Shown here: positions 19,890 to 58,638 of the stretch, piece after piece | Layout: each line of letters opens with the position of its first letter | How positions within the stretch are numbered: the first letter of the stretch is position 1 | Origin: an uncultured Gemmatimonadales bacterium | GTDB taxonomy: Bacteria > Gemmatimonadota > Gemmatimonadetes > Gemmatimonadales > GWC2-71-9 | Assembly: GCA_963828735.1 (NCBI GenBank) | Contig: CAWHFW010000005.1 | Location: 2,233,261-2,297,260, forward strand | DNA: 64,000 bases | Direction: 5' to 3' | Translations under genes and position numbers: made by a program | Notes under the pieces: model-generated | The model's input: only the letters and a program-made list of their open reading frames with translations | Told to the model about the DNA's origin: nothing | Database searches by the model: none

Positions 19890-21528
19890 TCAGGGGCCGG
19901 GTGTCGCTGGCCGAATCTCCACGCGGCGGTTGGCGGCGCGTCCGCGCGGGGTGGTATCACCGGTGAGCGGCACCGACGAGCCATAGCCGCGCGCCACGAT
20001 CTGCTGGTAGCTGACGCCTTTCACGACCAGGTAGTCGCGAACCGCCTCTGCCTGAAGCTGGGTGAGGCGGTTGTCATCGCTCGTCGAGCCGCTGTTGTCG
20101 GTATGGGCGCCGATCTCGACCCGCGAGGCGGGATTCGCGATGAGCAGATCCGCCAGCGAATCCAGGGCGACGTAGGAGGACGTCTGAAGCCGTGCCGTGC
20201 CCGAGGCGAAGGTGACGTTCGGTATCACGCCCGACGCGATCACCAGGGCGCCGGCCTTCGGCACCGTGACGTTCGGATGTTGGATCGGTCGTCCGGTGGT
20301 GTCGATGGGCGGCCGGGCGGCAGCACCGCTGGGGGGAGGCTGCGCCGCGTTCGGCTGCGAGACGCCGGCGCGTGGCGCTGCCTGGGTCGGGGCTGCTGCG
20401 GCGGCCCCCGCCCGCGCGGGCGGAGGCGCACCCGACGGCGCGCCCTGGTTGGCCGCCTGGCCCTGGGCGCAGCCCGACGAGTTCACGGCGGCGCCGGGCT
20501 GTGTCCGCGGGCAGTGATCGAGCCCGTCGAGCACGCCGTCACCATCCTCGTCGCCCGGGCAACCGAGGGCATCCACCGTGGCCCCGCGAGGCGTGTCCGA
20601 GCAGCGGTCGAGGCCGTCGGGGATCTGGTCGCCGTCGCTGTCCTTGGGGCAGCCGCGCGGGTCCACCAGCACGCCCGCGGGCGTGTCGGGGCACCGATCG
20701 AGGCCGTCGGGGATGTTGTCGCCGTCGGTGTCCTGCGAGCATCCGCGGGCGTCCACGGCGGCGCCGGCCACGGTGGTCGGGCATCGGTCGATGCCGTCGG
20801 GCACCCCGTCGCCGTCGCCGTCGCTCGGGCAGCCGCGCGAGTCCACCGACGCGCCGCTCGGCGTATCGGAGCACCGGTCGTGGTTGTCGAGCACGCCGTC
20901 CCCGTCGGTATCGAGGATGGGCTTGCTGCCAAGCATGAAGCTCACCCCGGCATTCACGCCGAAGTTGGACAGCGTCACGCCCGCGGCGTTCTCCCTGGGC
21001 CTTGCTCTTGTTCCGGTTGTAGAGGCCCTCGACGCGCGCGAGGATCGTGGGCGTCAGCCCGACCCGGAAGCCCGCGCCCCCCAGGAACGCGCCGCTGCTG
21101 CCGCAGATCGGATTGTCGGGGCTCGCGACGCTGGGGCAGCTCCCGCCGTACTTGGTCGACCCACCGCCCGCCTTCAGATAGAAGGTGGTGCTGGACCCGA
21201 TCAGGAAATTGTAGAGCGCCGAGATGCCGAACGTCTTGACGCTGACGCTCTCGTCCCCGGTCTTGCTGTTGGGCGACGAGAACGCGCCCTCCACCTCGAC
21301 CGAGAAGTTGAGCGGCAGCCACAGGCCGACCCGCGCGACGCCCCCGGGCGCGCCGTCCAGTTGGGTGTCCGAATCGAATGACTGGTAGGCGCCGGCGGCG
21401 CTCAGCTCGACGAGATACTTCCGCTGCTGGGCGGCGCCGACGCGCGCACACGCCACGACGAGGGCGAGGCCGGCCAGGAGTCCGACTCCCCCGGCCCAGC
21501 CCCTGAAGGGCTGCTGGTAGGTTCGCAT
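19890..21528 (-). pseudogene. OmpA-family outer membrane protein with thrombospondin type-3 repeats, split by one +1 frame break
   Basis: N-terminal signal and beta-barrel lie in the frame of ORF 20539..21528 (to ...LYNRNKSKAQGE). The last barrel strands, five TSP3 repeats and the OmpA_C domain (EIGAHTDNSGS...NRRVEI) lie in the frame of ORF 19890..20978. The frames meet at CCCAGGG around 20985-20995. 1639 nt is 546 codons plus 1. Confidence 0.8.
20483..20912 (-). repeat. intragenic thrombospondin type-3 (calcium-binding DxDxDG) repeats
   Basis: Five copies of D(T/S)DGDx(V/I)xDxxDxCxxTxxGxxVDxxGC, also visible as DNA-level periodicity. Confidence 0.8.
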
Positions 21529-45277: not shown

Positions 45278-46087
45278 ATGGACATCATTCCGGTGCTCGA
45301 TCTCGCGCAGGGCGTTGCCGTGCGCGCGCAGGCCGGCGACCGCTCGCGGTACGAGCCCACCGCCTCCGCGCTCGCCCCGGACGCGGTAGGCGAGCCCGTG
45401 CCGATCATGCGCGCCTTCCGGATGCGGCTTGGTGCCAGGTCGTGCTACATCGCCGACCTGGACGCCATCCAGGGCGGCGCCGTGCAGCGCGGCACCCTGC
45501 GGGAGCTGGCGCAGCTCGATACCGGGTTTGCCGGCGCGATCATGGTGGACGCGGGCGCGCACACGCCGGAGAGCACGTTCGAGGTGCTGGCAACCGGTGC
45601 GAGCCAGGTCGTGATCGGCCTCGAGACCCTTCGGGCGTTCACCGACCTTCGGGCCATCGTCCGGACGGTGGGCGAGCACCGCGTCGTGTTCAGTCTCGAT
45701 CTTCGGCTCGGGAGCCCCATCCTCCACCCGGCGATGCAGGATGCGGAGGGCGCGGTGCCCGATGCCCTGAGTCTGGCGGCCCAGGCCGCGGACACCGGCG
45801 TGGACGGTCTGCTGGTGCTGGATCTGGCGCGGATCGGAACCGGGTGCGGAACGGACCTGGGACTCATCGAGGCGCTGCGGAAGCGATTCCCCGACGCCAG
45901 ATTGATGGCGGGTGGCGGCGTGCTGGCACGGCGGGACCTCGACCGTATGCGGGACGCCGGCTGCGACGGGGCCCTTGTGGCGAGCGCGATTCACGCCGGC
46001 ACCATCACGGCCGCCGACCTGGCGGATCTTGCCGCCGGGCCGGTCGGGGCTCAGTCGCCGAGCGTTTCGCGGTACGTGGCGGACTGA
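45278..46087 (+). CDS. HisA/HisF-family TIM-barrel protein (H4MPT cluster type)
   Basis: MDIIPVLDL...YIADLDAI...VVIGLETL...LLVLDLARIGTG...GGGV. GTG 45272 is an alternative start. Confidence 0.8.
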   Translation: MDIIPVLDLAQGVAVRAQAGDRSRYEPTASALAPDAVGEPVPIMRAFRMRLGARSCYIADLDAIQGGAVQRGTLRELAQLDTGFAGAIMVDAGAHTPESTFEVLATGASQVVIGLETLRAFTDLRAIVRTVGEHRVVFSLDLRLGSPILHPAMQDAEGAVPDALSLAAQAADTGVDGLLVLDLARIGTGCGTDLGLIEALRKRFPDARLMAGGGVLARRDLDRMRDAGCDGALVASAIHAGTITAADLADLAAGPVGAQSPSVSRYVAD

Positions 46088-46551
46088 CCGTAGTTCTCCT
46101 CGACCTCCAGCTCCAGCAGCGTCAGGTGACTGTACCCGCTCCCGTTGAGCTCGTCCCTGACCCGGCCACCCAGATACTGCGCCAGCATCTCGGCCGTGCT
46201 GTTCTGGATGGGGAGCAGGGCGCAGTCGCGCCTCGGGAAGACGTAGGCCGGCTGACCGAAGTAGTCTACCCGCAGACGGTCGCCGTCCTCATGGAATGCC
46301 AGCTTGGGATTCTGGGTTGGAAGCAGCACCTTGTGGTCGATCTCATCCACGAACCGGCGCGCGACCTGCTTCAGCACGCTGAAGTCGAGCACGAAGAACG
46401 CTTCGGCATCCACGGAACCTTCCACCGCCACACCGACCCGGTAGTTGTGACCGTGCAGCGTCTCGCACTGGTGTCCCCGGAAGGTGATGAAGTGCGCCGA
46501 GGCGAAGACCAGATAATCCTTGCTGACCTGCACGCGGAAATGGCTCTGCAC
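46051..46551 (-). CDS. 6-pyruvoyl-tetrahydropterin synthase family protein
   Basis: FASAHFI...CETLHGHNY...LDFSVLK motifs of the PTPS/QueD fold. 37-nt convergent overlap with the HisA/F-like gene. Confidence 0.85.
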   Translation of the reverse strand: MQSHFRVQVSKDYLVFASAHFITFRGHQCETLHGHNYRVGVAVEGSVDAEAFFVLDFSVLKQVARRFVDEIDHKVLLPTQNPKLAFHEDGDRLRVDYFGQPAYVFPRRDCALLPIQNSTAEMLAQYLGGRVRDELNGSGYSHLTLLELEVEENYGQSATYRETLGD

Positions 46552-46561
46552 GACGATCTCC

Positions 46562-47410
46562 TCAGCGGTTCCAGCCGTCCTCTAGTATAACGACGAACAG
46601 CGCGGCGCACGTGAGGTCTGCCGTCGTCCCCGGATTGCGGGCATTGGTCGAGCTCCTGAGCTCCGCGTCGAGCGCCTGGAGCGCCCGCCTCCCGTGCTCC
46701 GAAGTTACGCCGCCGGCCTGCTCTACCTCGCGCGCGCGGCGCGACACGGCCTCCGCCGCTTCGCGACCCAGCTTCCGCGCGATGTGCGTATCGGGCAGCG
46801 CGGCGAGGATCCGCAGGTACGTCTGGACGGTGGCGTCGTCCCAGCCGAGTCCGGCGCTGCGGGCCTCGCGCAGGGCGGGCACGGCGACCTCGAACGTCGT
46901 GGCGAAGTCGGTGGCGTACTCGCGTGCGACGCTGTCCCGATCGGCCGCGATCGCCATGGCATCGCGGAGTTCGACGGTCGGCGGGGCCGCCACGTCCTCG
47001 CTGGCCGAGGAGCCCAGCCCACCCGGGCGCGCGCGCCGAATCGCGGTGTAGACCTCGGCGGCGTCGGCGACGGTGGTCGAGGCCAGCACGTCGCGCGTCC
47101 TGTCCCGCAGCGAACCGGCCGGCCGCAGGGCCGCGCAGGCCAGGGGCGAGAGCAGCAGAATGATGCCGAGGTTGGTGTTCGAGGCGGTCCACCGGTTCGT
47201 CGCGGTGACCGCGGCGAGGATGGTGGCGCCCAGCGGGCGCTCGCCGGCCGACGCGAGGGCCGGGCCGATCGCCACGGCGCTCGCCAGGAAGTCCTCGTAG
47301 CTCGTGTCGTGGAAGTGGCGCCCGGGCGAGACGTTGCCCGGCTTGGGCGCGCTGACCTCGAGCAGGCACGCGAGCTGACCGGCGGCGGCCACCTCGTCGG
47401 GCGTGTTCAC
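46562..47410 (-). CDS. triphosphoribosyl-dephospho-CoA synthase (CitG/MdcB) family protein
   Basis: GTG 47410 overlaps the upstream stop (GTGA). LLEVSAPKPGNVS...NTNLGIILLLSPL...NPGTTADL. Confidence 0.8.
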   Translation of the reverse strand: MNTPDEVAAAGQLACLLEVSAPKPGNVSPGRHFHDTSYEDFLASAVAIGPALASAGERPLGATILAAVTATNRWTASNTNLGIILLLSPLACAALRPAGSLRDRTRDVLASTTVADAAEVYTAIRRARPGGLGSSASEDVAAPPTVELRDAMAIAADRDSVAREYATDFATTFEVAVPALREARSAGLGWDDATVQTYLRILAALPDTHIARKLGREAAEAVSRRAREVEQAGGVTSEHGRRALQALDAELRSSTNARNPGTTADLTCAALFVVILEDGWNR

Positions 47411-48336
47411 CCGCGCGGGCCCACGAGCTGGTCGATCACGGCGCCGGCCACGTCGATCCCGGTGGTGGCCTGCAAGCCCTCCCATCCGGGAATCCCGTTG
47501 ACCTCGAGCACGTATGCCGAGCCGTCGCGGGCCGGCAGCAGGTCGACGCCCGCGTATTCGGCGCCCACTGCCGCCGCCGCCCGCACGGCGAGCGCGCTCC
47601 ATGCCTCGGAGAGCTGGACGGCCCGCGCCGTCCCTCCGCGGGCGAGGTTGGTGCGCCAGCCGTCCGAATGGCGCTCGATGGCCGCCAGCACGCGTCCCCC
47701 CACCACGAACGCGCGGATATCCCGCCCCTCGTGGTCGATGGCGCGCTGCAGATAGTAGACGCCGCGGATGGTCTCGATCGTCTTGAAGACCCGAAACGCC
47801 ATTTCCTCGTCGCTCACCCGCACCATTCCGAGTCCCATCGAGCCGAACAACGGCTTCACGATCACGTCGCCCAGCGCGCGGAAAGCGGCGAACGCCTCCT
47901 CGGGCGATTCGCAGACGATGGTCTCTGGTGTCGGCAGCCCGCACTGCTCGAGCAGCGCCGAGGTCCAGAACTTGTCGACCGTCCGCTCGATGGCACGCGG
48001 CGAGTTCATGACCCGCACGCCTCGGTCCTCCAGTCGGTGCAGCGCGTCCACGCGGAAGATGATCTGCTCGAGCGAGCCCGAGGGAATGATCCGGGCGAGC
48101 ACGGCGTCCGCGCGGTCGAGATCGGCCGCGCGGCTCCGAAGGCCGGGCTGATGGCCGATCGTGGCCACCAGCCCCTCGTAGGGAACGACCGACCCGGTGT
48201 GCCCGCGCGCCTCGAGCGCGCGGGTCAGCTCCCGGGTGTGCCAGCCCTCGCGGGCGGCGAGGATGACGAGGTGCAGGTTACTGCTGCTCGCCGATGAGGG
48301 CGGTGAGCCCGCCGGTCGCGAACCTGGGAAGGTCAT
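47407..48336 (-). CDS. RimK-family ATP-grasp glutamate ligase (tetrahydromethanopterin:glutamate ligase-like)
   Basis: ATP-grasp core (VIVKPLFGSMGLGM, YYLQRAI, VDLLPARDGSAYVLEVNGIPGW). Start unclear: ATG 48336 overlaps the upstream gene by 59 nt. The conserved-looking N-terminus LHLVILAAREGWH begins at a CTG (48276) just after the upstream stop. Confidence 0.8.
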   Translation of the reverse strand: MTFPGSRPAGSPPSSASSSNLHLVILAAREGWHTRELTRALEARGHTGSVVPYEGLVATIGHQPGLRSRAADLDRADAVLARIIPSGSLEQIIFRVDALHRLEDRGVRVMNSPRAIERTVDKFWTSALLEQCGLPTPETIVCESPEEAFAAFRALGDVIVKPLFGSMGLGMVRVSDEEMAFRVFKTIETIRGVYYLQRAIDHEGRDIRAFVVGGRVLAAIERHSDGWRTNLARGGTARAVQLSEAWSALAVRAAAAVGAEYAGVDLLPARDGSAYVLEVNGIPGWEGLQATTGIDVAGAVIDQLVGPRG

Positions 48337-49057
48337 CGCCGACCTTCTTGAACGCCGGGGTCGCGGTGCCTTTCTTGAGCTCATCCATCGAGTTGAAGCA
48401 CAGCTCCGCCTGGCGGTACTCGGCCGGCGCCGAACCGTCGAGGTTCGACTCGAACCGGGTCAGGTCCGCGCGGGTGAAGCCGATCTCCGGCTGGCCCGTG
48501 CCGACGAGCGGCAGATGCGTCTCGGAATAGTAGGACTCGAAGGCCGCGCTGTCCTTGGGCGCGTTGTAGATCACGGTGACGAGCGCCGGGCACGCCGCCG
48601 AACCCTTCTCGCCGGTTTCGACTGCCACCATGCCGAGAAGGCCACCCGTGGCGAACTTCGAGAGGTCGTCGCCGACCGCCTTGAAGCCCGGGGTCGCCAT
48701 GCCCTTCTTGAGGTCGTCCATGGAGTTGAAGTACAGCTCCGCCTGCCGGTAGAAAGTCGGCTTCTTGCCGTCGAGCGTGCTGGTGAACTTGGTCAGCTCC
48801 GCCTTGGTGAATCCGATCTCCTGCTGCTTGCTGCCCACGAGCGGCAGGTGGACCTCCTTGTAGTACTTCTCGAACGCCGCCGGATCCTTGGGCGTCTTGT
48901 AGATGACCGTGACGATCGCCTGCGGCCCTGCCGGTGCGGCGGGCGCGGCCGCCGTCGCGGTGTCCGCGGGCGGCGCTTCGGCCGGCTTGTCGGCGGGCTT
49001 GCTGCACGCCGTCGCGAGCGTCAGGGAGGAAACCAGCCAGATCGGAAACCGTCGCAT
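48278..49057 (-). CDS. lipoprotein with two tandem EthD-like domains
   Basis: Lipobox LTLATAC. Two roughly 105-aa repeats (VTVIYKTPKDPAAFEKYYKEVHLPLV...ELYFNSMDDLKKG... and VTVIYNAPKDSAAFESYYSETHLPLV...ELCFNSMDELKKG...). Confidence 0.75.
   Translation of the reverse strand: MRRFPIWLVSSLTLATACSKPADKPAEAPPADTATAAAPAAPAGPQAIVTVIYKTPKDPAAFEKYYKEVHLPLVGSKQQEIGFTKAELTKFTSTLDGKKPTFYRQAELYFNSMDDLKKGMATPGFKAVGDDLSKFATGGLLGMVAVETGEKGSAACPALVTVIYNAPKDSAAFESYYSETHLPLVGTGQPEIGFTRADLTRFESNLDGSAPAEYRQAELCFNSMDELKKGTATPAFKKVGDDLPRFATGGLTALIGEQQ
48281..48925 (-). repeat. intragenic tandem duplication (about 320 bp x2, roughly 70-75% identical by eye)
   Basis: The DNA of the two EthD-like halves aligns directly (for example ...gtcgccgacc..cttgaa.cccggggtcgc...cttcttgag.tc.tccat.gagttgaag.acagctccgcctg.cggta...). 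Confidence 0.7.
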
Positions 49058-49091
49058 CGCTTGCTCCTGGGGTCGGGGAAAAGGGATTCTG

Positions 49092-50066
49092 TCAGCTCGG
49101 GTAACACGACGCGGTCAGCACCTCGGGATTCAGGTGCCCCGCGTGGAACGTCCGGCCACTCTCGGTACTCGTGAGCCATACTTCCGCGGGACTGAAGAGC
49201 AGGGGGTCGATCTTGTAGAAGTCGCCCTCGTACCGCTGGAAGATCTCGTAGAACGGTGTGCCGTAGTCGCGGGATGCGGACGCCGGGACCTTGGGCGCCA
49301 GCTCCGCCAGCTCCGCGTCGCTCGCGCGAACCGTGTAGCGCGCCTGCCCACCGTACAGGATACAGTCGTTGGTCCGACCGATGGCGCGCAGGTCGTTCTT
49401 GGCCACGGGTGCGATCGGCGCGGTGCCTATCGCGCTCACCACGCGCCGGACGTCGAATCCCAGCGTCTCCATCTTGTGCAGGCCCGTTTCCAGGATCCGG
49501 GCCGAGATCTGCACGCCGCCCGCGAGGCTCGCGGTCGGCGCGACCACGAAAGTGAGCTGGGAGGGCTGCAGGCGGGCCTTCTCCGCCACCCAGAAGGCCA
49601 CCGCGTCGGTGGGGAGGGTGCGCCCCTCGAGAACCATCACGCCCTGGGCGGCCTCCTCCGCGTAGTCGAGCTTCTCGAACAGCTCGCGCTCGACGCGTGC
49701 GTGCGCCCGGAGCGGGCCCGATCCCATGGCGAAGAACTTGTCCACCGAGATGGCCCACCCCGCGTACTGCGAGGCCATGCACGAGACGGCCGGGTGATCG
49801 GTCCACACCGTGAGTCCGGGCCACGCCTCGCCGCCGACCTGAATCGGGGAGTAGGTCACGTTGCCCAACCCACCCATGCAGATCTCGCCCAGCAGAAGCC
49901 CGGCGTCGTAGCCGCCTTCGATCTCCACTCCGGCATCGATGACGCGCGCGCCGCTGGGGAGGGTCCGGGATCGCACGCGAAGCGTGGCGGCGTGCTCCTC
50001 GAGATGATCTGCGATCTCCGTCGCGAGCTCGTTCATCTGGAGCCCGGTCGTCGTCACGCTGTCCAT
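49092..50066 (-). CDS. mch: methenyltetrahydromethanopterin cyclohydrolase
   Basis: Full-length Mch-like sequence (LNVNELA-type N-terminus, GGYDAGLLLGEICMGGLG, ASQYAGW, FAMGSGPLRA, RTNDCILYGG). Confidence 0.93.
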   Translation of the reverse strand: MDSVTTTGLQMNELATEIADHLEEHAATLRVRSRTLPSGARVIDAGVEIEGGYDAGLLLGEICMGGLGNVTYSPIQVGGEAWPGLTVWTDHPAVSCMASQYAGWAISVDKFFAMGSGPLRAHARVERELFEKLDYAEEAAQGVMVLEGRTLPTDAVAFWVAEKARLQPSQLTFVVAPTASLAGGVQISARILETGLHKMETLGFDVRRVVSAIGTAPIAPVAKNDLRAIGRTNDCILYGGQARYTVRASDAELAELAPKVPASASRDYGTPFYEIFQRYEGDFYKIDPLLFSPAEVWLTSTESGRTFHAGHLNPEVLTASCYPS

Positions 50067-50815
50067 GCGAGAATCTCTCCCTTGCCGAGTTCGGCGAGGT
50101 CGCCACTGTAGCGGCGGTAGAAGCCCGTGAGGTGCCGTCCCTCGACAGGCAGACTGTAACGCGTCTTGAGCCGTGACAGCATCAGGCGCAGGTGGACCGG
50201 TTGATAGGTGCAGGCGTACCGATACGTAGCGGGAACGGTCAGCTCGCCGAGGGCGACGAGCGAGCCCCGCTTGGACCAGAGTCCGGCCGGGTTCGCCACG
50301 GACCCGAACGCGACGATCGTTCCGGCGATCATGCCCACGCCGGCGTGATCCTCCACCGACCCGCCCGCTACCAGGAGCCCGCGACGCATCAGCGCCCCGG
50401 CTTCGCGCCCGAGCGAGCCGTGCACCACGAGCTCCCCGCCGGTCATGCCTCGCCGAGCCTCCGGCGCAGCGGCTCCCGCCCGAGCGCCGGCGCTGCCGCG
50501 CACTTCGATGCTGCCGCCCGACATGCCGATTCCGACCTCGTCCCCCACATCACTGTCGACCACGACGGTCCCCTCGGTCAGCCCGGCACCGACCCTCGTC
50601 GCGCGAGTCCACTCTCCCGTGAGGCGGAGGCTCCCGTTCGGCTCGCCGGACAGGTCGCACAGGTCGCCGAGGGGGACCAGGCCGCGACCGGCAATGACGA
50701 CCGGACGCCGCGCCAGCTCCGCCGCGGACCAGCCGGTCCACGTCCCATCCAGCACGGCCGAGCAGTCCGCGGGCGCGGCGAATGGCGACCGGAGCCTGGC
50801 CTCGAGCCCGCTCAT
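50054..50815 (-). CDS. fhcC: formyltransferase/hydrolase complex subunit C (FwdC-like)
   Basis: ATG 50815 (ATGA overlap with fhcD). Repeated GxxGG beta-helix motifs (VGIGMSGGSIEVRGSAG, GMTGGELVVHGSLG, GVGMIAGTIVAFG). Confidence 0.85.
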   Translation of the reverse strand: MSGLEARLRSPFAAPADCSAVLDGTWTGWSAAELARRPVVIAGRGLVPLGDLCDLSGEPNGSLRLTGEWTRATRVGAGLTEGTVVVDSDVGDEVGIGMSGGSIEVRGSAGARAGAAAPEARRGMTGGELVVHGSLGREAGALMRRGLLVAGGSVEDHAGVGMIAGTIVAFGSVANPAGLWSKRGSLVALGELTVPATYRYACTYQPVHLRLMLSRLKTRYSLPVEGRHLTGFYRRYSGDLAELGKGEILAWTA

Positions 50816-51711
50816 GTCGCACCGTCCATGATCTTCCGCAGATGAAAATGGTGCGGGCCGAGCTTGCCCCCGTAGTTGCCCGCCGAGATGGAGACGATCC
50901 CATCGAGACAGGCGGCGCCGATGCCGAGCCGCATGGCGCTCGCGATCGCGTCCGGATCGGTGCCGTTGATGACGATCTCGAGCACCGAATTCACGGTCTC
51001 CGGCAGCGCCGTGGCGGTGATGGCGCGGAGCGTCGGGCAAAAGGCGTCGTTGGTCGACGCGATCATGCTCTTGATCCGCCGGGAGCCCACCTTGCTGCCG
51101 CTCCGGACGACGCCGCCGGGAAACGGGAGAATGACCCCGGGATGACCGCGCATCGCCTCCACGGCCGCCTCTGCCGCGGCCAGCGCCGCGTCGGCCGAGC
51201 GGCCGAGGATGAGGAAGTTGCCCCCGCCGACGCCTTTCACCATGCCGAACTTTTCCTGGACGACGAACTCACCCTCCATCACCGGGATCCGCCAGAAGCG
51301 CTCGCCGCCGATGACCTTGCTCGACTGAAAGCCGTCGCCGAAGAATCGGAGCGCGGACCCCACACCGAGCCGGTCGGGCGCATCGGGCAGGCCGTCGAAG
51401 CAGGCGGTTGTGGGGCAGGTGAGCACCGTCTGCCCGATCCGTTCGATGAGGCGTTTTGGGAGGTCGTCCTTGCTCATCGTCATCAACAGCATGCTCATGC
51501 CCGGCCGCCCATCGGGCGTCTCGCCCTCGGGCAGTTCCCGCTCGATTCCCGCTTCCACCTTGCAGCCGATCACGGAGGTCGCGAAGCCGGTCAGCTTGAG
51601 CGCGGCCTCGCGGACCCAGCGCGGGCTCCGGCCCGTGATGATCACCCGCGCCACCCGCATCGTGAACGCCTCGGCGAAGGTCTCTTCGATGAAGACGCCG
51701 CGGATGTTCAT
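50812..51711 (-). CDS. fhcD: formylmethanofuran--tetrahydromethanopterin N-formyltransferase
   Basis: Ftr-like over its full length (IEETFAEAF, RVIITG, GFATSVIGC, RIPVMEGEF, GGGNFLILG, AGNYGGKLG). Confidence 0.93.
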   Translation of the reverse strand: MNIRGVFIEETFAEAFTMRVARVIITGRSPRWVREAALKLTGFATSVIGCKVEAGIERELPEGETPDGRPGMSMLLMTMSKDDLPKRLIERIGQTVLTCPTTACFDGLPDAPDRLGVGSALRFFGDGFQSSKVIGGERFWRIPVMEGEFVVQEKFGMVKGVGGGNFLILGRSADAALAAAEAAVEAMRGHPGVILPFPGGVVRSGSKVGSRRIKSMIASTNDAFCPTLRAITATALPETVNSVLEIVINGTDPDAIASAMRLGIGAACLDGIVSISAGNYGGKLGPHHFHLRKIMDGAT

Positions 51712-51718
51712 CGCCGCC

Positions 51719-53372
51719 TCAACCCGTGACCACCGGCTCGCCGGGCAGGTCGCTCACCGCATAGTTGTCGAACGACACCGTGGCATACCGCTCGAAATGA
51801 CGCCGGAGGTCGGGCAACACCGCGTCGTCGTACCCGGGAGCCACGCGCAGGCGGCGGCCGGCGGGGGCCCGTCGCAGGTGACCCTCCTCGACGATCACCA
51901 GGCCGTCCTTGATGACGTAGCGCGGCGTCGAGAACATGGCGGCCAGGTCCGCATTGCGGCTGTAGATCGTCACATCCGCGTCGGCGCCCGGCCCGAGGTG
52001 GCCCTTGGCCCGAAGCCCGAGAAGGCGCGCCGGCCCGGCCCGCGTGATGATCGCGATCTCGTTCAGGGTGTACTCGCGGGCGAGCCCGTCCGCCAGGGCG
52101 CTCCCCGCGACGAGCTTGGGGTTCACCCGCTTGAGCTGCTCATCGCGCACGGCCCGGTCCATCAGGAGCTGGATCAGCGCCGGATACGAGAGGAACGAGC
52201 CGCCGTTCGGATGGTCGGTGGAGAGCACCACCCGCCATGGATCCGCGCTCAGGAGGAACAGTTCCAGCCCGACCGCCCACTGCAGCGCACTGACCGCCGC
52301 CTTGTCCTTGTAGATCAGCGGGACGATCCCGCAGCCCGTCTCCAGCTCGATGTCGATGTTGGTCCAGCGGCGGCCGCTGCTCTTGTGAAGCAGGTACTCG
52401 ACGGGCGCGTCCGCGGTGATGGTCGTCGCGGGGCCGAACATCACCTGGCCCACGTCGACGCTCACCTCCGGGTGCGTGTTGACGTAGTCCATCACCTCGG
52501 ACGCGGCGGAGCTCCACGGCTGGCCGCCGCCCCCGCCGTAGCAATGGAACTGCAGGTGCGTGAAGTGCGCGCGCCGGCCCGCCACGGCTTCCATGCTCGC
52601 CAGCGTCGTGGCGGCGTTGCCGGCCACGCCGAGATTGTTGCAGTGGATGTGGACCGGGTGCGGCAGACGAAGCCCGTTCGCCGCGTCCGTGAGCGTCTCC
52701 AGGATCGTCCGGGGTGTCAGGTCACGGCCGCTCACCGAGTCGTCGATGGTGGCGACGTTCCGCTGTCCCGTCTTCCACGCCTCGATGCCGCCCGGATTCA
52801 CGATCTTGACCGCGTATCCGCCGGTCGCTCCCAGAAGCCACGCCGCGTAGTCGCGCGCACGATCCCGTTCGCCGGCCTCGATCTGGCGCAGGAGGTACTC
52901 GTCGTTCCCCATGAGGACGAAGATGCCGCCGTCGACGCACGGCGTGTCGTCCAGCTCGCTGTGGCTGTGCCGCGCCGTGAGCGGCGCGACGGCTGCGTCG
53001 AATGCCGTGGTGTAGCCCAGGCCGGCGTACCGGTATCCCGTCGTGAAGGTGCTCGGAACCGTACCCGCCCGTCCCCGAGCGGGCGAGCGGCTGGTCGTCG
53101 TCGAGCGTCGGTGCCGGCGCGGGATCGGCGGCGTGCTCGTCGGGGATGAGCCGGCGGGCGTGGTTGCAGCTGGAGCTGGCGAAGTGGGAATGGATGTCCA
53201 CTCCGCCAGGCATCACGACCATGCCGCGCGCGTCGAGCGTCGGCGCACCGGCCGGGAGATCGGCGACGATGCGCCCATTCTCGATGCAGATGTCGCGGAC
53301 GTCGCCGTCGACGCCGTTTGCCGGGTCGTGAATCGCGCCGCCGACGATCCGAAGCCGCGTCGGCGCGCTCAT
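51719..53372 (-). pseudogene. fhcA: formyltransferase/hydrolase complex subunit A (FwdA-like amidohydrolase), one +1 frame break
   Basis: The N-terminus (MSAPTRLRIVGGAIHDPANGVDG...MPGGVDIHSHF...ARSGTG) lies in the frame of ORF 52722..53678. The remainder (GTVPSTFTTGYRYAGLGYTTAFDAAV...MGNDEYLL... to the stop) lies in the frame of ORF 51719..52912. The junction is at GTACCCGCCC around 53061-53070. 1654 nt is 551 codons plus 1. Confidence 0.85.
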
Positions 53373-54646
53373 CCGAGCCTCCGCGCGCCACGCGCGCGAA
53401 GCGCCGCGAGCAGCGCCGACAGCACGTCCACCGCCGTTCGGGTCGCGGGGAGCGGCGGGCGCAGCGGCAGCGGAATGTCGTCCATCCGATACGCGGTCCC
53501 GCCCTCGTGAATGCCCGGCGACGCCGGTGTCGACGGCGACCCGCGCCGGAAGCTTCGCCTCGCTCGCGCGGGGACCGATGATCACCACGGGAACGCGGGT
53601 CGCGACGGCAGCGATCTCGTCGACAATGGCCGCCGCCGCGCCGACCATCAGGATAGCGCCCGCTTCACGCTGCCGCATTCGCGACCCCCCGGGAAGCCGG
53701 CGTGTATTGCGGGTAGCCGGGTCGATAGCTGATGGCGATCGGGTAGCCGGTTTGCGAGGTGAGCACCATCTCCGCGCCCGAACGATTGCCGCCCGCTCGG
53801 AGCGAGCTGAGCGCGGCGCGCGTCGGTCCGTTCAGCGCCTCGGCCAGCGCAACAAGTCCTTCCGCCCGATAGCCGTCTCGGTCCTCGCCGCCAGGCTCGG
53901 CATCGTGCACGACGGCGGCGTAGCGCGCCTTCGTAAGGCGGCCAGCGATGTCGGCGGCCTGCTGCAGCGATGCGGGCAGCTCGCCGAGCGCGTTGCCCAG
54001 CGCCACGGCCCGCATCACCGAGAGCGCTGGGATCTCCTGGTCGGGGCTTAGCGAGAGCTCCACGTCCAGCACCCGTCGGGCCTCGGTCCCGGCCGACGCT
54101 CACCGCCATCACGGTGCGCCCGGCCCGTCCCTTCGGCACGTGCGTACCAGCAGGCTCCGGCGCGTACCGCGACCAGTATCGCGGGTAGCGCTCGCTCGGG
54201 TCCACCGCCCAGAAGAGGAGCATGTCCGCCCGATTGCGGATCTCGCCGAGGGTAGCGGCCGCACGCCCACGCCGCTGCGCCACCAGAAGGCCCGCCGCCG
54301 CCGGCTCCGACGTGGCTGTCTCCACCCGCGCGCGCAGCAGGTCGGCGAGCGCGAGTGACGCGCGCTGCGCCTGTGCGCTGATCTCCGGAGCCAGGACGAC
54401 CAGGACATTTCCCGTAGCACCGGCCAGCACGTCGGCGGCGTCGGCGATCGCGGCATCGAGCGGGACCTCCTGTCCCGAGCGACGCACGGCGGTCGGGACG
54501 CTGCCATCGGCGAACCACGTCCTCGCGAGAGGGCACGGCGGCGAGACGTTGGTGATCGCTGCGCCCGAGACCTCGACGACGAGGTCATCGCAGCCGCATC
54601 CGCAGCCCAGGCAGGTCACCGCGGCGATCCGCGTGGTCGGGCTCAC
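53369..54646 (-). pseudogene. fhcB: formyltransferase/hydrolase complex subunit B (FwdB-like), three +1 frame breaks
   Basis: GTG 54646 (GTGA overlap). Segment 1 runs from CLGCGCGCDD to ...MAVSVG. Frame shifts to segment 2 (TEARRVLDVELSLSPDQ...GYPQYTPASRG), then segment 3 (SRMRQREAGAILMVG...VAVDTGVAG), then segment 4 (IHEGGTAYRMDDIPLPL...stop, ATGA overlap with fhcA). The breaks lie at CCC 54088-54090, C6 53685-53690 and CCC 53514-53516. Confidence 0.8.
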
Positions 54647-55797
54647 GCCACCCCCCGTGCGCGCCGTGCCGTCGCGTGGTACACGGCGTCCGCGGCGGCG
54701 GCAAGCGCCGCGGTGCAGCGGTCGCCGTCTGCCGCATGGGCGAAGACGGTGCAGATGGGGCGCCCGGCGGCGATCCGCTCCCCGGGGTGCGGAACGTCGG
54801 CGATCTCGGCTTTCCACCGCGCCGGATCCCCCACCAGGACATCGTGCCGCGCGAACACGATCGCCTTCCCGCAGACGCGCACGCTCGGCTCGGGAGCTTC
54901 GGGCAGCGTCCCGGCACAGGCATCGAGATGCGCTCGAAAGAGCGAGAGGCCGGTGGCGCGTTCTACCAGCTCCATGGACGCCGAGTACCGCGGGTTCACC
55001 TCGATCGGGTAGGGCACGCCGTTCCGGGCGATGAAATCGATGCCGTTGAGCCCTTGCAAGCCGAACGCCGCGGTCACGGCATCCGCGAGCGCCACGGCAC
55101 GCCCATACAGCTCTGCCTGCCGCACGAACAGCACTGTCTTGCGGGCTGCGAGCAGGCTGCCGCAATAGCGGAAGCCCTGTGATCCGAACGCTCGGTGGCC
55201 GACCAGCTGGCGTGTGAGGCCGAGCGTCACCGCCCGGCGGCCGTCGGCGACGAAGATGATCGAGCCCGGCGGGCCGGCGATCCGCTCCTGGAGGTACGCG
55301 CCGCGCGGCACCGGTTGTCCGCGGCTCCACGCTCGCGTGCCGTGCCCACCGCCCGACCGTCTCGGCTTGAGCAGCCACCGACGAGCGTCGAGCGACGGCG
55401 TCGGCACGCTCGCGCGGGTGATCGGCACGGCGACCCCGGCGGCCGCGAGCGCCCGAGCGAGCGCCAGCGGGTTGCGGACGCGCGCGAGAACCTCGGGTGG
55501 GTTCCCCAGCAGGCGTCGCCCACGCGAGAGCACCGCGACGGCGGCGGGATGGTTTTCGAAGTTGGAGGTGTAGGCGATCAGCTCGGCGCTCACGCGGGAG
55601 GCCGCGCGAGCGGCTGTTGCGGCCCCGTATGGGCGCGCGCCCTTGTGACGGAGCGGTACGACGTCCGCGACGGCCCGGAGATCGAGGTCGCCGAAGGCGT
55701 CCACCACGGTCACCCGATACCCCGCGCGTGCGGCCGATTCGGCGAGCGCGCGGGTCGAAACGCCCGCCAGCAGGATGTGACCGCGCCGATCAGACAT
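54643..55797 (-). CDS. ATP-grasp domain protein (H4MPT/methanofuran biosynthesis cluster type)
   Basis: ATG 55797 (MSDRRGHILLAGVSTRALAESAARAGY...). ATP-grasp core (WLLKPRRSGGGHG, YLQERI, NGIDFI...PIEVNPR). Confidence 0.8.
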   Translation of the reverse strand: MSDRRGHILLAGVSTRALAESAARAGYRVTVVDAFGDLDLRAVADVVPLRHKGARPYGAATAARAASRVSAELIAYTSNFENHPAAVAVLSRGRRLLGNPPEVLARVRNPLALARALAAAGVAVPITRASVPTPSLDARRWLLKPRRSGGGHGTRAWSRGQPVPRGAYLQERIAGPPGSIIFVADGRRAVTLGLTRQLVGHRAFGSQGFRYCGSLLAARKTVLFVRQAELYGRAVALADAVTAAFGLQGLNGIDFIARNGVPYPIEVNPRYSASMELVERATGLSLFRAHLDACAGTLPEAPEPSVRVCGKAIVFARHDVLVGDPARWKAEIADVPHPGERIAAGRPICTVFAHAADGDRCTAALAAAADAVYHATARRARGVA

Positions 55798-56842
55798 CAG
55801 GCAGGCCCAGCCGTCGCCGTGCGGTGGCCGGTGCGATGACGTGCAGGTGGTCGAGCACCGTTCCTGTCGCCTCCCGAATCCTGAGTCGGTCCACCAGGCC
55901 GCGGTGCGTCCCGCCGGCCAAGCCGTCGGCGAGGACGGCGGCGCCCTGTGCCCCCTGCTTGGCGCACGCGGCAAAGCCCGTCAGCGTCAATACCTCGCCC
56001 AGATCCGCGATCGCGGCCGCCACCCGGCGCCGGATCTCGGGATCCGCGGCATGTCGCCCCGAGAGCAGGATCTCGTCGGCCTCCGGCGCGGCCGTCCGGA
56101 GAACGCGCACCGCGCGGGCGGCCCCTTCGATGTAGGCCTCGAGCGTCGCCTCGCGGAGGGTCGGGTCAGCTCGCGAGATCCGCTCCACGCCACCGTCGAA
56201 CAGCATCCCCTTCGTCACCTCGGCCGCGAGGTATGCCACCTCGCCATCCAGTGCGCCCGCGGCGCGCCACCCGATCGGCCCGCTGGTGCCGCCCAGTCCA
56301 TCCACGATCTGCCCGCGCTGGACGGCGAGCGCGGCCGTGAATGCCCCACCCAGTTCGAGCAGCACCAGCGAAACATCCTCCGGACGACGACCCCGCTTGG
56401 CGCCGCGCTCCGCGATCGCGAGCGCGGCGGCACAGACCTTGTCGGCCGTACCCAGGTCGACCCGGTTGAGCTTCCGGTGGCGGGGCACGGTGTCGAGGTG
56501 CACCACGCCGGGCGTGAGCATCAACGGCAGGCCCGCCTCGTCGAGACGCCGCGTGAGCGCCCGCAGGCCGCCGATCCCGCCCGTTTCACCAGGCGATGCC
56601 AGGAACGCGAGCCTCAGGTCGTCCTCGCTCGCATCGCGGGCCATACGGAGAGGCAGTCCGTACCCGGAAGGGCCGACCACCAGTTCGACGGGGCCGGCGG
56701 CGAGCAGGGCGCGCACCAGCGGACGGACATCCGCCATCACGTCCGCCGTCGGCCAGCTCGCATCGAGGAAGAGGCGGCCGTCGTCGAGGCCGCAGACGTC
56801 GAGGCTCAGCGTGCCTGGGTCGATTCCCGCGACGCGCGGCAC
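55790..56842 (-). CDS. DUF1464-family ASKHA-fold protein
   Basis: GTG start. VAGIDPGTLSLDVCG...GTADKVCAA...ELGGAFTA... is an actin-like ATPase fold, commonly encoded in H4MPT clusters. Confidence 0.72.
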   Translation of the reverse strand: MPRVAGIDPGTLSLDVCGLDDGRLFLDASWPTADVMADVRPLVRALLAAGPVELVVGPSGYGLPLRMARDASEDDLRLAFLASPGETGGIGGLRALTRRLDEAGLPLMLTPGVVHLDTVPRHRKLNRVDLGTADKVCAAALAIAERGAKRGRRPEDVSLVLLELGGAFTAALAVQRGQIVDGLGGTSGPIGWRAAGALDGEVAYLAAEVTKGMLFDGGVERISRADPTLREATLEAYIEGAARAVRVLRTAAPEADEILLSGRHAADPEIRRRVAAAIADLGEVLTLTGFAACAKQGAQGAAVLADGLAGGTHRGLVDRLRIREATGTVLDHLHVIAPATARRRLGLPDV

Positions 56843-56846
56843 CGAC

Positions 56847-57719
56847 TCACCGCTTCTGTTTCACCATCTCCCGTGCCACGTCCGCGATCGCCTCGGCGTC
56901 GAGGACCAGATCGTTCCGGGTGAAGAGCTTCGCGACGCACGCCTTGTGGAGCTTGGTCTTGAAGTTGCCCACGCCGAACGCGCCGAACACCGTCACGCCC
57001 TCCCGCTCCTCGCCGGCGTCCTTGACCTCGACGCCTTCGATGCCGAGCGGCGGCACGGCGTTGAGGTCCACCGCGATCTTGAGCGTCTTGACGCTGGTCC
57101 ACGCCGCTTTGGGCACCATCTGCACGCCGGCCGGACCGGAGTTGAGCAGTACGTCCACGCCATCCAGCAGTTCGGGCAGCTTGGACGGATCGCTCATCGC
57201 GACGGCCTTCACCTCGACGCTGAAGCGGGCGTCGATGAACTGCCGCGCCTTGTCGCCCTGCTCGGGCTTGCGCGACGTGATCGTGACGCGCGCGCCGTCC
57301 TTCGCGAGCAGTCCGGCCGCCCGCTGGCCGACCGGTCCCGTGCCCGCCAGGATGAGAATGTTCTTGCCCGTGAGATCCCCGAACAGCTCCTCGATCTTGA
57401 CCACCGCGGCGACCGCCGTGGTGTTCGAGCCGTTGGAGTCGAGCATGATCGAGACGCAGAACGGCGCGAAGAGCGAGTCCTGCGCCATGGCGAGGAGCTG
57501 CTCGCCGGCCGACATGTTGTTGCCGCCGATCCAGACCGCGGTGTTGTGCAGGTCCTTGGTGCCGCGGGTGAAGATGCAGCCGTGGATGAGATCGCGGACA
57601 TCCCCTTCGGTCACGCCGCCGTAGCTCATGATCGCGTCGGCACCGGCATCGTAGGCCACCACCTGGTCGAACACACTCGGCAACCGTGAACTGTCGAGCT
57701 GGAGCAGAAGCTTTCGCAT
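56847..57719 (-). CDS. mtdB: NAD(P)-dependent methylenetetrahydromethanopterin dehydrogenase
   Basis: MRKLLLQLDSS...PSVFD.VV.YD.GAD...MLDSNGSNTTA...LAGTGPVG...NA.PPLGI resembles MtdB throughout. An alternative ATG lies at 57731. Confidence 0.9.
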   Translation of the reverse strand: MRKLLLQLDSSRLPSVFDQVVAYDAGADAIMSYGGVTEGDVRDLIHGCIFTRGTKDLHNTAVWIGGNNMSAGEQLLAMAQDSLFAPFCVSIMLDSNGSNTTAVAAVVKIEELFGDLTGKNILILAGTGPVGQRAAGLLAKDGARVTITSRKPEQGDKARQFIDARFSVEVKAVAMSDPSKLPELLDGVDVLLNSGPAGVQMVPKAAWTSVKTLKIAVDLNAVPPLGIEGVEVKDAGEEREGVTVFGAFGVGNFKTKLHKACVAKLFTRNDLVLDAEAIADVAREMVKQKR

Positions 57720-57823
57720 CGCCGAACCCATCTCCGTCCGTCAGAAGGTCCTGGGAAAAATACGAGGGGCGGCCCGACCTCGGGCGCCCCTCGTCGACAC
57801 GCCGGGAATGCGGGACTGTACGA

Positions 57824-58336
57824 TCAGCCCTCGGCGCCGCTGGCGAACGGATGCCGCGCGGCCTTGTACTTCGAGAGCACCTCGTCGACGGTGGGCGTGC
57901 CCTTGAGCGCCCGGGCGATCGACTCCTTCACCGCCTGGTAGTTGAAGGAATAGATCTTCTTGTCGTCTTCGGCCTGCCAGTGGATAAACACGCCCACGAG
58001 GATGCAGAGGTCGTTCGCCTGCGTCTTCGAGATGACCCCCTCGTTCACCGAATCCATGACTGCGCGGGCGACGGCCGCCTGCGCCGGGCCGAACATCTGC
58101 ACGGCCTGCTTCGCACCCTTGATGGTGACCTTGTTGAAGAGCAGCGTGTCCGGCTTGCAGGGAAGGTTCGGGGTTACCACGGCGAGAAGAGTGGAGAAGC
58201 CGTCTTTGTTGTTGGAGAGCGCGTGGGTGAAGGCTGCACCGGCCGACCCGGACTTCGATCCGATGATCAGGTCGATATGCGCAATCTCGTTGCCATCGCC
58301 GACGAGCGACTCACCGATGAAGAAATCCGCGGCCAT
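57824..58336 (-). CDS. fae: formaldehyde-activating enzyme
   Basis: ATG 58336 preceded by GGAGG at a 5-nt spacing. [19 protein letters not shown]...[22 protein letters not shown]...QMFGPAQ...LVGVFIHW matches Fae. 170 aa. Confidence 0.95.
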
Positions 58337-58638
58337 ACCTGCCTCCATGTGCGATTTGGTGAAGAGCGAGAGGATTTGGCGAAACATACGCAGCTCGACC
58401 AGGCGAAGAGTGAGGCCGGCACCGGAGCGACGTGGATGGAGCGAGGCCACGCAGTCCCGCCAATTGGCGGGTAGCTCGTACTTTGGCGACGCAAGTCCTG
58501 CGTAGAGGCCACTAGTATGGACGTGACCTAAATACCTGTCAAGGAGTCATGCACCCCCCGCAGGCACTCTCCGGGCACGTTGCCCGAAATCGTCTTTCGG
58601 TGTATATTCGGTTCTCTCGGAAACACTGCAAGTGATTC

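Follow-up and report, generated by a model that had tools for sequence, protein, structure and literature searches.

Frame breaks in fhcB and fhcA of an uncultured Gemmatimonadales bacterium very probably reflect consensus errors in a long-read metagenome assembly rather than gene inactivation

The stretch of DNA analysed here (64,000 nucleotides, the window) contains an H4MPT-linked formaldehyde oxidation cluster in which fae, mtdB, mch and fhcABCD are co-located with H4MPT biosynthesis genes. Two adjacent genes of this cluster, fhcB and fhcA, are interrupted by four frame breaks in the deposited sequence, which raises the question of whether the organism has lost a step of the pathway or whether the consensus is at fault. 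A previous sequence-only reading had set out both alternatives, a local assembly or consensus problem and genuine inactivation, and made no choice between them. Our analysis strongly favors the former: each of the four breaks very probably reflects a one-base error in the consensus of a metagenome assembled from long reads. We favor an artefact because relatives with ∼98% identity do not carry the extra bases, breaks of this kind are specific to Nanopore-only MAGs within this clade, the contig appears to be a long-read product, a fifth break occurs elsewhere in the window and no other decay is seen in the two genes.

Three-frame translation of the minus strand showed that FhcB passes from frame 0 to 1, from 1 to 2 and from 2 back to 0, and FhcA from frame 2 to 0, with one nucleotide skipped at each step; three +1 corrections were required in fhcB and one in fhcA. 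A 6-state GC3 frame HMM independently recovered all four breaks (54108/54117, 53685/53694, 53514/53523 and 53028/53037), so that the four +1 breaks described in the sequence-only reading are indeed present. With three of them, the deposited fhcB has no uninterrupted frame of normal length (about 420-430 amino acids). Deletion of three bases gives an fhcB of 1275 nucleotides and 424 amino acids that is collinear with an intact homologue, P0001, and deletion of one base gives an FhcA of 550 amino acids. The start of fhcB is a GTG overlapping the upstream stop (GTGA, 54643-54646), the stop of fhcB overlaps the fhcA start (ATGA, 53369-53372), and both overlaps are preserved when the four bases are deleted. 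The corrected lengths (about 424 and 550 amino acids) and the coupling overlaps that had been proposed earlier were thereby reproduced. The gene caller of the source record emitted a truncated FhcA fragment of 397 amino acids, which is on record at NCBI and ENA.

The corrected proteins were compared with their family profiles. Residues 10-412 of FhcB match TIGR03129 in a single stretch (profile positions 2-417 of 421, E=7.6e-68) with a score of 229 bits, which is below the cut-off of 327.8, a divergence that is common to the intact Gemmatimonadales relatives. These intact relatives are named subunit B at JGI and carry the label "hypothetical protein" at NCBI. FhcA scores 670.7 bits against TIGR03121 (cut-off 392.75), also in a single stretch (positions 2-549 of 556), and its best 120 homologues have 541-553 amino acids, nearly all of them 548-550. 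A TBLASTN search of the window with the FhcB of L001 returned one low-identity HSP in one frame only, since wrong-frame translation of this GC-rich sequence has low complexity, and was uninformative on the window. We take the FhcABCD formyltransferase/hydrolase complex to be comparable to the methylotroph type of Methylorubrum extorquens. The two are alike in the fhcB-A-D-C order and translational coupling, in the matches to TIGR03129, TIGR03121, TIGR03119 and TIGR03122, and in the flanking fae, mtdB, mch and H4MPT cofactor genes; they differ in that the host here is a Gemmatimonadales bacterium and the FhcB of the window is divergent. The cluster arrangement is syntenic in most of 80 Gemmatimonadales loci.

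For placement of the extra bases we aligned the window to two independent contigs of ∼98% identical strains, which amounts to the comparison with the fhcBA of close relatives that had been recommended for this locus. The first, L081, is a Logan contig from run ERR11596052 that is 98.5% identical to the window over positions 54828..53260; the second, L082, is ENA contig_110168 (98.2% identical). L081 shows exactly three gaps against the window, each corresponding to an extra base in the window, and encodes an intact fhcB of 424 amino acids (P0001), which is codon-for-codon collinear with the corrected window gene and 97-98% identical to its product. L082 lacks all four extra bases, yet has about 15 indels of its own. 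The resulting positions are given in Table 1 with the other features of the cluster.

Table 1. Genes of the H4MPT cluster and positions of the extra bases in the window.
Feature	Coordinates	Strand	Remarks
fae	57824..58401	-	intact; upstream in cluster (54643..58401)
mtdB (Mpt_N)	56847..57743	-	intact; upstream in cluster
DUF1464-type gene	55790..56835	-	intact; family name solely from annotation of the L082 neighbour
ATP-grasp gene	54643..55818	-	intact; upstream in cluster
fhcB (formylmethanofuran dehydrogenase subunit B homologue, Fhc complex)	53369..54646	-	1278 nt = 1275 + 3 extra
Extra base 1, fhcB	54069	-	coding-strand C, TG[C]TGG; window GGT G[C]TG GAC, L081 and L082 GGT GTG GAC
Extra base 2, fhcB	53668..53669	-	window GCA GCG TGA; L081 ACG GC- TGA; L082 GCA G-G TGA
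Extra base 3, fhcB	53513..53516	-	window GCC GGG C ATT; L081 and L082 GCC GGG ATC
fhcA (formylmethanofuran dehydrogenase subunit A homologue, amidohydrolase)	51719..53372	-	1654 nt = 1653 + 1 extra
Extra base 4, fhcA	53062..53066	-	window GGC GGG T A CG GTT; L082 GGC GGG TCG GTG
fhcD (formylmethanofuran-H4MPT formyltransferase)	50812..51711	-	intact; TIGR03119, 417.7 bits
fhcC (subunit C homologue)	50054..50800	-	intact; TIGR03122, 133.7 bits
mch	49092..50076	-	intact; downstream in cluster (46051..50076)
EthD-domain protein, RimK-like ATP-grasp, CitG-like, PTPS-like (H4MPT biosynthesis)	within 46051..50076	-	all intact
Fifth +1 break	20988..20995 (∼20991)	-	cag gga g aac; OmpA-family gene, about 19890..21528

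At site 1, L081 and L082 place the one-base gap identically, and the flanking bases match. At site 2 the window carries the C allele of L081 and the G allele of L082 in tandem (GCT and GGT giving GCGT), and the break generates an in-frame TGA that terminates the frame-1 reading. At site 3 either the C at 53513 or a G in the adjacent GGG is spurious. At site 4, which was placed with L082 alone, itself a noisy contig, parsimony favors the A at 53062 as the spurious base, though it could instead be a G from the GGG. Correctly placed, no site has a run longer than 3. Two of the positions proposed previously, CCC at 54088-54090 and C6 at 53685-53690, were ∼20 nucleotides off when judged by these alignments. 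The earlier choices of site give the protein sequence RGSRMRQREAG where the 98% relative has RGIANATAEAG, and correction at 53668 gives RGVANAAAEAG. The accompanying claim that all four sites are homopolymer runs fails for sites 1 and 2, which are not homopolymer-length changes, and may hold for sites 3 and 4, where removing an extra G from GGG restores the frame equally well. We saw no sequence motif or context shared among the four sites, and a common motif or methylation-site cause was dropped for this reason.

The same comparison was examined for traces of gene decay. After frame correction we found neither premature stops nor deletions in fhcB and fhcA, and the frame HMM detected an intact GC3 coding signal in every segment of both genes. 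There was likewise no excess of non-synonymous change or loss of codon bias that would be a sign of relaxed selection. The window and L081 differ at 16 codons (8 synonymous and 8 conservative differences) and by 20 substitutions and 3 indels in all. A dN/dS estimate from these 8 synonymous and 8 non-synonymous changes was set aside, since so small a number cannot distinguish a recent relaxation of selection from purifying selection. Among the best 120 FhcA homologues, we found no relative with more than 91% identity. A SNP relative to the close strains is found no more than 5 nucleotides away from three of the four sites (P about 0.03; 0.03-0.09 across distance thresholds), an adjacency that lends weak support to a mixture of strains as the source of the breaks. 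A "tandem allele" test, which asks whether the extra base and its neighbour correspond to two alleles found at a single position in relatives, was passed by all four sites, but 73-89% of random non-homopolymer insertions pass it too against the deep set of relatives; we kept this evidence for site 2 only, because the alleles there are those of L081 and L082.

We surveyed frame changes across 80 syntenic Gemmatimonadales loci, 23 of them from Microflora Danica long-read (Nanopore-only) MAGs and 57 from other assemblies. Frame changes were present in 12 of the 23 Nanopore-only loci versus none of the 57 others (Fisher p=2e-8), with totals of 38 events in about 272 kb and 0 in about 518 kb, respectively. 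Extra bases dominate among these events (31 of 38), matching the window, where all five breaks are of this type, and the gene most frequently broken was FhcB (9 events). The Microflora Danica MAGs are Nanopore-only assemblies made with Flye and one Medaka round, without short-read polishing (PMC12313526), and Nanopore consensus indels are a known source of frameshifted gene calls (PMC9262707, Sereika et al. 2022, R9.4.1/R10.4); in such Flye and Medaka assemblies, as in the window, single-base indels split conserved genes (PMC9262707, PMC12313526). The exact proteins of the window, including the 397-amino acid FhcA fragment, were found on one contig of 2,756,837 bp at NCBI and ENA. A 2.76-Mb contig from an uncultured soil bacterium implies a long-read assembly, and the NCBI and ENA source pattern of this contig is the same as that of the Microflora Danica Nanopore MAG contigs, from which we infer that the platform of the window itself was long-read and most likely Nanopore-only. 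The literature on Nanopore error stresses long homopolymers, whereas at least two of the insertions in the window lie outside homopolymers, the textbook context for such errors, and this counts against an artefact.

The sequence-only reading had also held that the error rate is not uniform, and in this it was correct: four of the five breaks fall within 1008 nucleotides of the 64-kb window, a clustering beyond chance (P=7e-5 by simulation). It had added that the other genes of the window read through cleanly, which is not so for an OmpA-family gene with an OMP beta-barrel, TSP3 repeats and an OmpA C-terminal domain. This unrelated, conserved gene lies 32 kb from the fhc region and contains the fifth +1 break, a GC3 frame change without a stop codon. 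The OMP_b-brl match (positions 4-175 of 175) crosses the join, most of the 120 listed homologues of the merged protein are full length (about 490-556 amino acids, covering 94-100%), and P0140, which is 94% identical to it, is uninterrupted at this position. The fifth break weakens the idea that errors occur in fhcBA only. Since four breaks in 1 kb are not expected from a uniform error rate, a local cause is needed, and this need counts against the artefact reading. Base composition was rejected as this cause, the GC content of the region (72-75%) being the same as that of the unbroken neighbours at 55000-56700. Such tight clustering (4 in 1 kb) suggests a local problem of strain mixture or coverage more than a systematic basecalling motif.

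Genuine strain-specific pseudogenisation, with four real one-nucleotide insertions inactivating fhcB and fhcA, seems to us unlikely. In its favor, the deposited sequence does contain the breaks, at least two sites lie outside the classic homopolymer contexts, and the clustering in two adjacent genes of one complex (P=7e-5) looks as if selection had been lifted there alone, while indels in other genes would be selected against; such clustering is also expected of real pseudogenisation and in this respect counts against an artefact. As in the frameshift pseudogenes of decaying bacterial genomes, one-nucleotide indels interrupt the frames while the flanking genes are intact. Unlike those pseudogenes, however, the two genes show no stops, deletions or excess substitutions, codon bias and overlaps are intact, and the four indels, set against about 20 substitutions, are all insertions. 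An all-insertion pattern without stops or deletions is atypical of decaying bacterial genes, and the ratio of 3 indels to 20 substitutions relative to L081 is far above what we would expect from neutral decay. The insertions are missing from strains with 98-98.5% identity, one of which encodes an intact FhcB; this intact gene is compatible with an artefact or with a very recent lesion. The confinement of the extra-base signature to the Nanopore-only MAGs of the clade, the same defect in the unrelated ompA-like gene and the integrity of fhcD, fhcC and all the remaining genes for the pathway and its cofactor also speak against inactivation. If the pseudogenes were real, the formyl-MFR hydrolase step would be lost and fae/mtdB/mch would form a dead-end branch. 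It is accordingly quite doubtful that a soil Gemmatimonadales strain has very recently lost the Fhc step through real insertions and kept fae, mtdB, mch, fhcD, fhcC and the cofactor genes; were this true, the locus would catch the loss of H4MPT-dependent formaldehyde oxidation at its earliest stage, or a rerouting at the level of methenyl/formyl-H4MPT.

A subpopulation with one or more frameshifted alleles might exist beside an intact one, with the assembler reporting a chimeric haplotype. Close strains (L081 and L082) do occur together in public data for related samples and SNPs adjoin three of the four sites, but nothing points to a real haplotype with an insertion, and a miscalled consensus at mixed positions is the simpler reading; we consider such heterogeneity very improbable. 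Programmed +1 recoding, by ribosomal frameshifting or transcriptional slippage, would restore full-length FhcB and FhcA and would account for every shift being +1 and for the three in fhcB summing to a restored frame. Sites 1 and 2 lack a slippery or homopolymeric motif, the sites have no context in common, an Rfam search of the sequence found no recoding element, and there is no shift at these positions in L081 or in any of the 57 assemblies outside the Nanopore-only group. We know of no case in which four separate recoding sites share 1 kb, and the intact alleles in near-identical strains effectively refute recoding, which we regard as scarcely credible.

The explanation that we prefer is that the assembly of this uncultured bacterium, made from long reads and most likely from Nanopore reads alone, acquired single-base insertion errors in its consensus. 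Consensus calling would have been degraded locally over about 1 kb, giving rise to the error cluster, and the likeliest cause would be reads of a co-occurring ∼98% identical strain, a coverage dip, or both. Of the artefact causes suggested earlier, homopolymer miscalls lack support at two or more of the four sites, and strain mixture or low coverage fits better, given the alleles at site 2 and the neighbouring SNPs. The real fhcB and fhcA would then be intact and translationally coupled, and the organism would possess a complete fae-mtdB-fhcBADC-mch formaldehyde oxidation module.

The main value of this finding is one of caution. The frame breaks in fhcB and fhcA are almost certainly errors, and an annotation pipeline that took them at face value would record this bacterium as being without the Fhc step. 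Roughly half of the examined Gemmatimonadales loci from Nanopore-only MAGs share the defect, and pathway-presence surveys of C1 metabolism that draw on MAGs of this type will therefore miss fhcB and fhcA too often unless they include short-read polishing or a frameshift-aware comparison. Judged from the sequence comparisons, the H4MPT formaldehyde-oxidation module should be read as intact in this bacterium and as widely conserved in soil Gemmatimonadales.

Three-frame translation of the minus strand follows FhcB from a GTG start at 54646 through frames 0, 1, 2 and 0, and FhcA from an ATG start at 53372 through frames 2 and 0, with one nucleotide skipped at each step. A six-state GC3 frame HMM, run over the whole window, recovered the same four breaks without homology. 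Once corrected, FhcB matched TIGR03129 in one stretch (positions 2-417 of 421, 229 bits; cut-off 327.8), as FhcA did TIGR03121 (positions 2-549 of 556, 670.7 bits). Deletion of the four bases gave an fhcB of 1275 nt and an FhcA of 550 amino acids, with the ATGA coupling overlap preserved. These analyses bear out the sequence-only reading, which had described four +1 breaks in two genes otherwise of normal size. The FhcB of the window and four of its Gemmatimonadales relatives (P0008, P0067, P0071 and P0072) fall under the NCBIfam TIGR03129 cut-off, and intact relatives are named "hypothetical protein" at NCBI and subunit B at JGI, an annotation problem distinct from the frame breaks.

For placement of the extra bases, close relatives were located by protein search with the corrected FhcB. 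We found P0001, an intact 424-aa FhcB with 97% identity, on contig L081 (Logan, run ERR11596052, 1566 bp) and the truncated P0011 on contig L082 (ENA ERZ25039575 contig_110168, 3519 bp). L081 is 98.5% identical to window positions 54828..53260, with exactly three single-base gaps, all extra in the window; L082 (98.2% identical) shows the same three gaps and a fourth in fhcA. The corrected fhcB is codon-for-codon collinear with that of L081, and the 16 codons that differ comprise 8 synonymous and 8 conservative changes. L082 has, in addition, about 15 private indels over its 3.5 kb, of which roughly 10 are insertions and 5 are deletions; at the ten also spanned by L081 the window agrees with L081. 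Because of these indels the fhcB of L082 was called as the 331-aa P0011, and the antisense gene called after it is probably spurious.

The comparison with the closest relatives' fhcBA, which had been proposed as a check, thus finds L082 without any of the four extra bases and L081 without the three in fhcB. It also refines the break positions: those first proposed were within a few bases at sites 3 and 4 and about 20 nt off at sites 1 and 2, where the proposed corrections yield a local peptide that no longer agrees with the 98% relative. All four breaks had been placed in short G/C runs. Sites 1 and 2 are not homopolymer-length changes; at sites 3 and 4 dropping one G from the adjoining GGG run is an equally valid correction, and a homopolymer origin is possible there.

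Features of the fhc region and of the fifth frame break (window positions)
Feature	Position	Strand	Detail	Source
H4MPT formaldehyde-oxidation cluster	46-58.4 kb	minus		domain/family matches; L082 neighbour annotation
fhcB	53369..54646	minus
Extra base 1, fhcB	54069	minus	TG[C]TGG	L081 and L082
Extra base 2, fhcB	53668 (53669 against L082)	minus	GC[G]TGA
Extra base 3, fhcB	53513	minus	GGG[C]ATT	L081 and L082
Extra base 4, fhcA	53062	minus	GGT[A]CGG	L082 only
EthD lipoprotein (predicted)	48278..49068	minus	two tandem EthD domains
OmpA-family outer-membrane gene	19890..21528	minus	+1 single-base break at about 20988-20995

The other genes of the window had been thought to read through cleanly. 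This does not hold throughout, since the GC3 frame HMM changes coding frame without a stop codon near 20985, where translation places a single extra base (cag gga g aac) that splits the beta-barrel domain of an OmpA-family gene. The merged protein contains OMP_b-brl (positions 4-175 of 175, across the join), TSP_3 (thrombospondin type-3 repeats) and the OmpA C-terminal domain. Most of the 120 homologues listed are full-length proteins of about 490-556 aa whose alignments span 94-100% of the merged one, and the 94% identical P0140 is uninterrupted across the join. With this fifth break, such errors are seen to extend beyond fhc in the same assembly, to a conserved gene with no relation to it.

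Four of the five breaks lie inside 1008 nt (P=7e-5 under a uniform distribution); the tight packing noted earlier is real, and some local cause is needed for it. Base composition does not account for it, with 72-75% GC there and in the unbroken neighbours at 55000-56700 (69.5% over the whole window). At site 2, where L081 has GCT and L082 has GGT, the window reads GCGT, with the C of the one and the G of the other in tandem. For three of the four sites a SNP relative to these close strains is found no more than 5 nt away (P about 0.03). Both observations hint at a possible strain-mixture mechanism. A broader "tandem allele" argument from distant relatives was dropped, as it was non-discriminating in a control.

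Comparison of all window cluster proteins by tblastn across 80 syntenic Gemmatimonadales loci revealed that frame breaks in this clade track sequencing platform. Frame changes occurred in 12 of 23 loci from Microflora Danica (MFD) long-read MAGs (L009, L026, L031, L033, L036, L042, L049, L055, L059, L064, L070 and L080, with 1-9 breaks each) and in 0 of 57 others (Fisher p=2e-8); the former set had 38 events over about 272 kb of coding sequence, the latter none over about 518 kb. The extra-base type makes up 31 of the 38 MFD events and all five window breaks. FhcB, the least conserved protein of the cluster, is the most often broken, with 9 events; in several MAGs a single gene contains 2-3 breaks. 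The MFD assemblies used Nanopore reads only, with Flye and a single Medaka round and without short-read polishing (PMC12313526). Indels in Nanopore consensus sequence are known to produce frameshifted gene calls, and near-finished quality is reached only above roughly 40-fold coverage (PMC9262707). The window's exact proteins, among them a truncated 397-aa FhcA fragment that a gene caller derived from the broken gene, are assigned in NCBI and ENA records to a single contig (2,756,837 bp). A single contig of this length from an uncultured soil bacterium points to a long-read assembly, and the NCBI and ENA source pattern is that of the MFD contigs. We infer from this that the window was probably assembled from long reads.

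The sequence-only reading had left artefact and inactivation undecided. In our view the four breaks very probably arose as erroneous single-base insertions when a metagenome consensus was built from long reads, given the intact genes of near-identical strains, the tracking of platform, the apparent long-read source, the fifth break, the lack of decay and, more faintly, the signs of strain mixture. The kilobase in which they are concentrated would be one of strain variation or poor coverage. Real loss of fhcBA by pseudogenisation, very recent and in this strain alone, would also give clustered breaks, but it is improbable beside intact genes in near-identical strains, breaks confined to Nanopore-only loci and the same defect in the OmpA-family gene. 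Corrected fhcB and fhcA have no stops and no deletions, codon bias and coupling overlaps are intact, and so is every other pathway gene. The fhcB gene shows three indels, all insertions, versus 20 substitutions, a ratio unlike that expected of neutral decay in bacteria. Programmed recoding is effectively excluded, as orthologues are unshifted, the sites share no motif and no Rfam recoding element was found; the 64-kb window had no Rfam match at the gathering threshold, and no tRNA genes were found in it.

The cluster runs fae, mtdB, a DUF1464-type gene (labelled solely from the L082 neighbour annotation) and an ATP-grasp gene; then fhcB, fhcA, fhcD and fhcC; then mch and EthD-domain, RimK-like, CitG-like and PTPS-like genes. 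The predicted EthD lipoprotein is encoded between mch and the RimK-like gene of H4MPT biosynthesis, a position at which it is conserved in about 53 of the related loci. In two loci (L053 1-1065 and L060 7-2768) a further fhcB/fhcA-like pair lies upstream of the main cluster. It is divergent, with 31% identity to FhcB in both loci and 57% to FhcA in L060 only, and may be a paralogous fwd/fmd-type set. Gemmatimonadales-like fhcA (70-73% identity) was also seen on L069, L074 and L080, whose MAGs bear the labels Bifidobacteriaceae, Vicinamibacterales and Acidobacteriota. Mis-binning or mislabelling may lie behind this, or else a wider distribution of the cluster.

The earlier observation stands in its main point, with its details revised. 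In this Gemmatimonadales bacterium the formyltransferase/hydrolase (Fhc) step and the H4MPT pathway are best regarded as intact. As biology the finding is ordinary; it serves as a caution when pathways are called from Nanopore-only MAGs.
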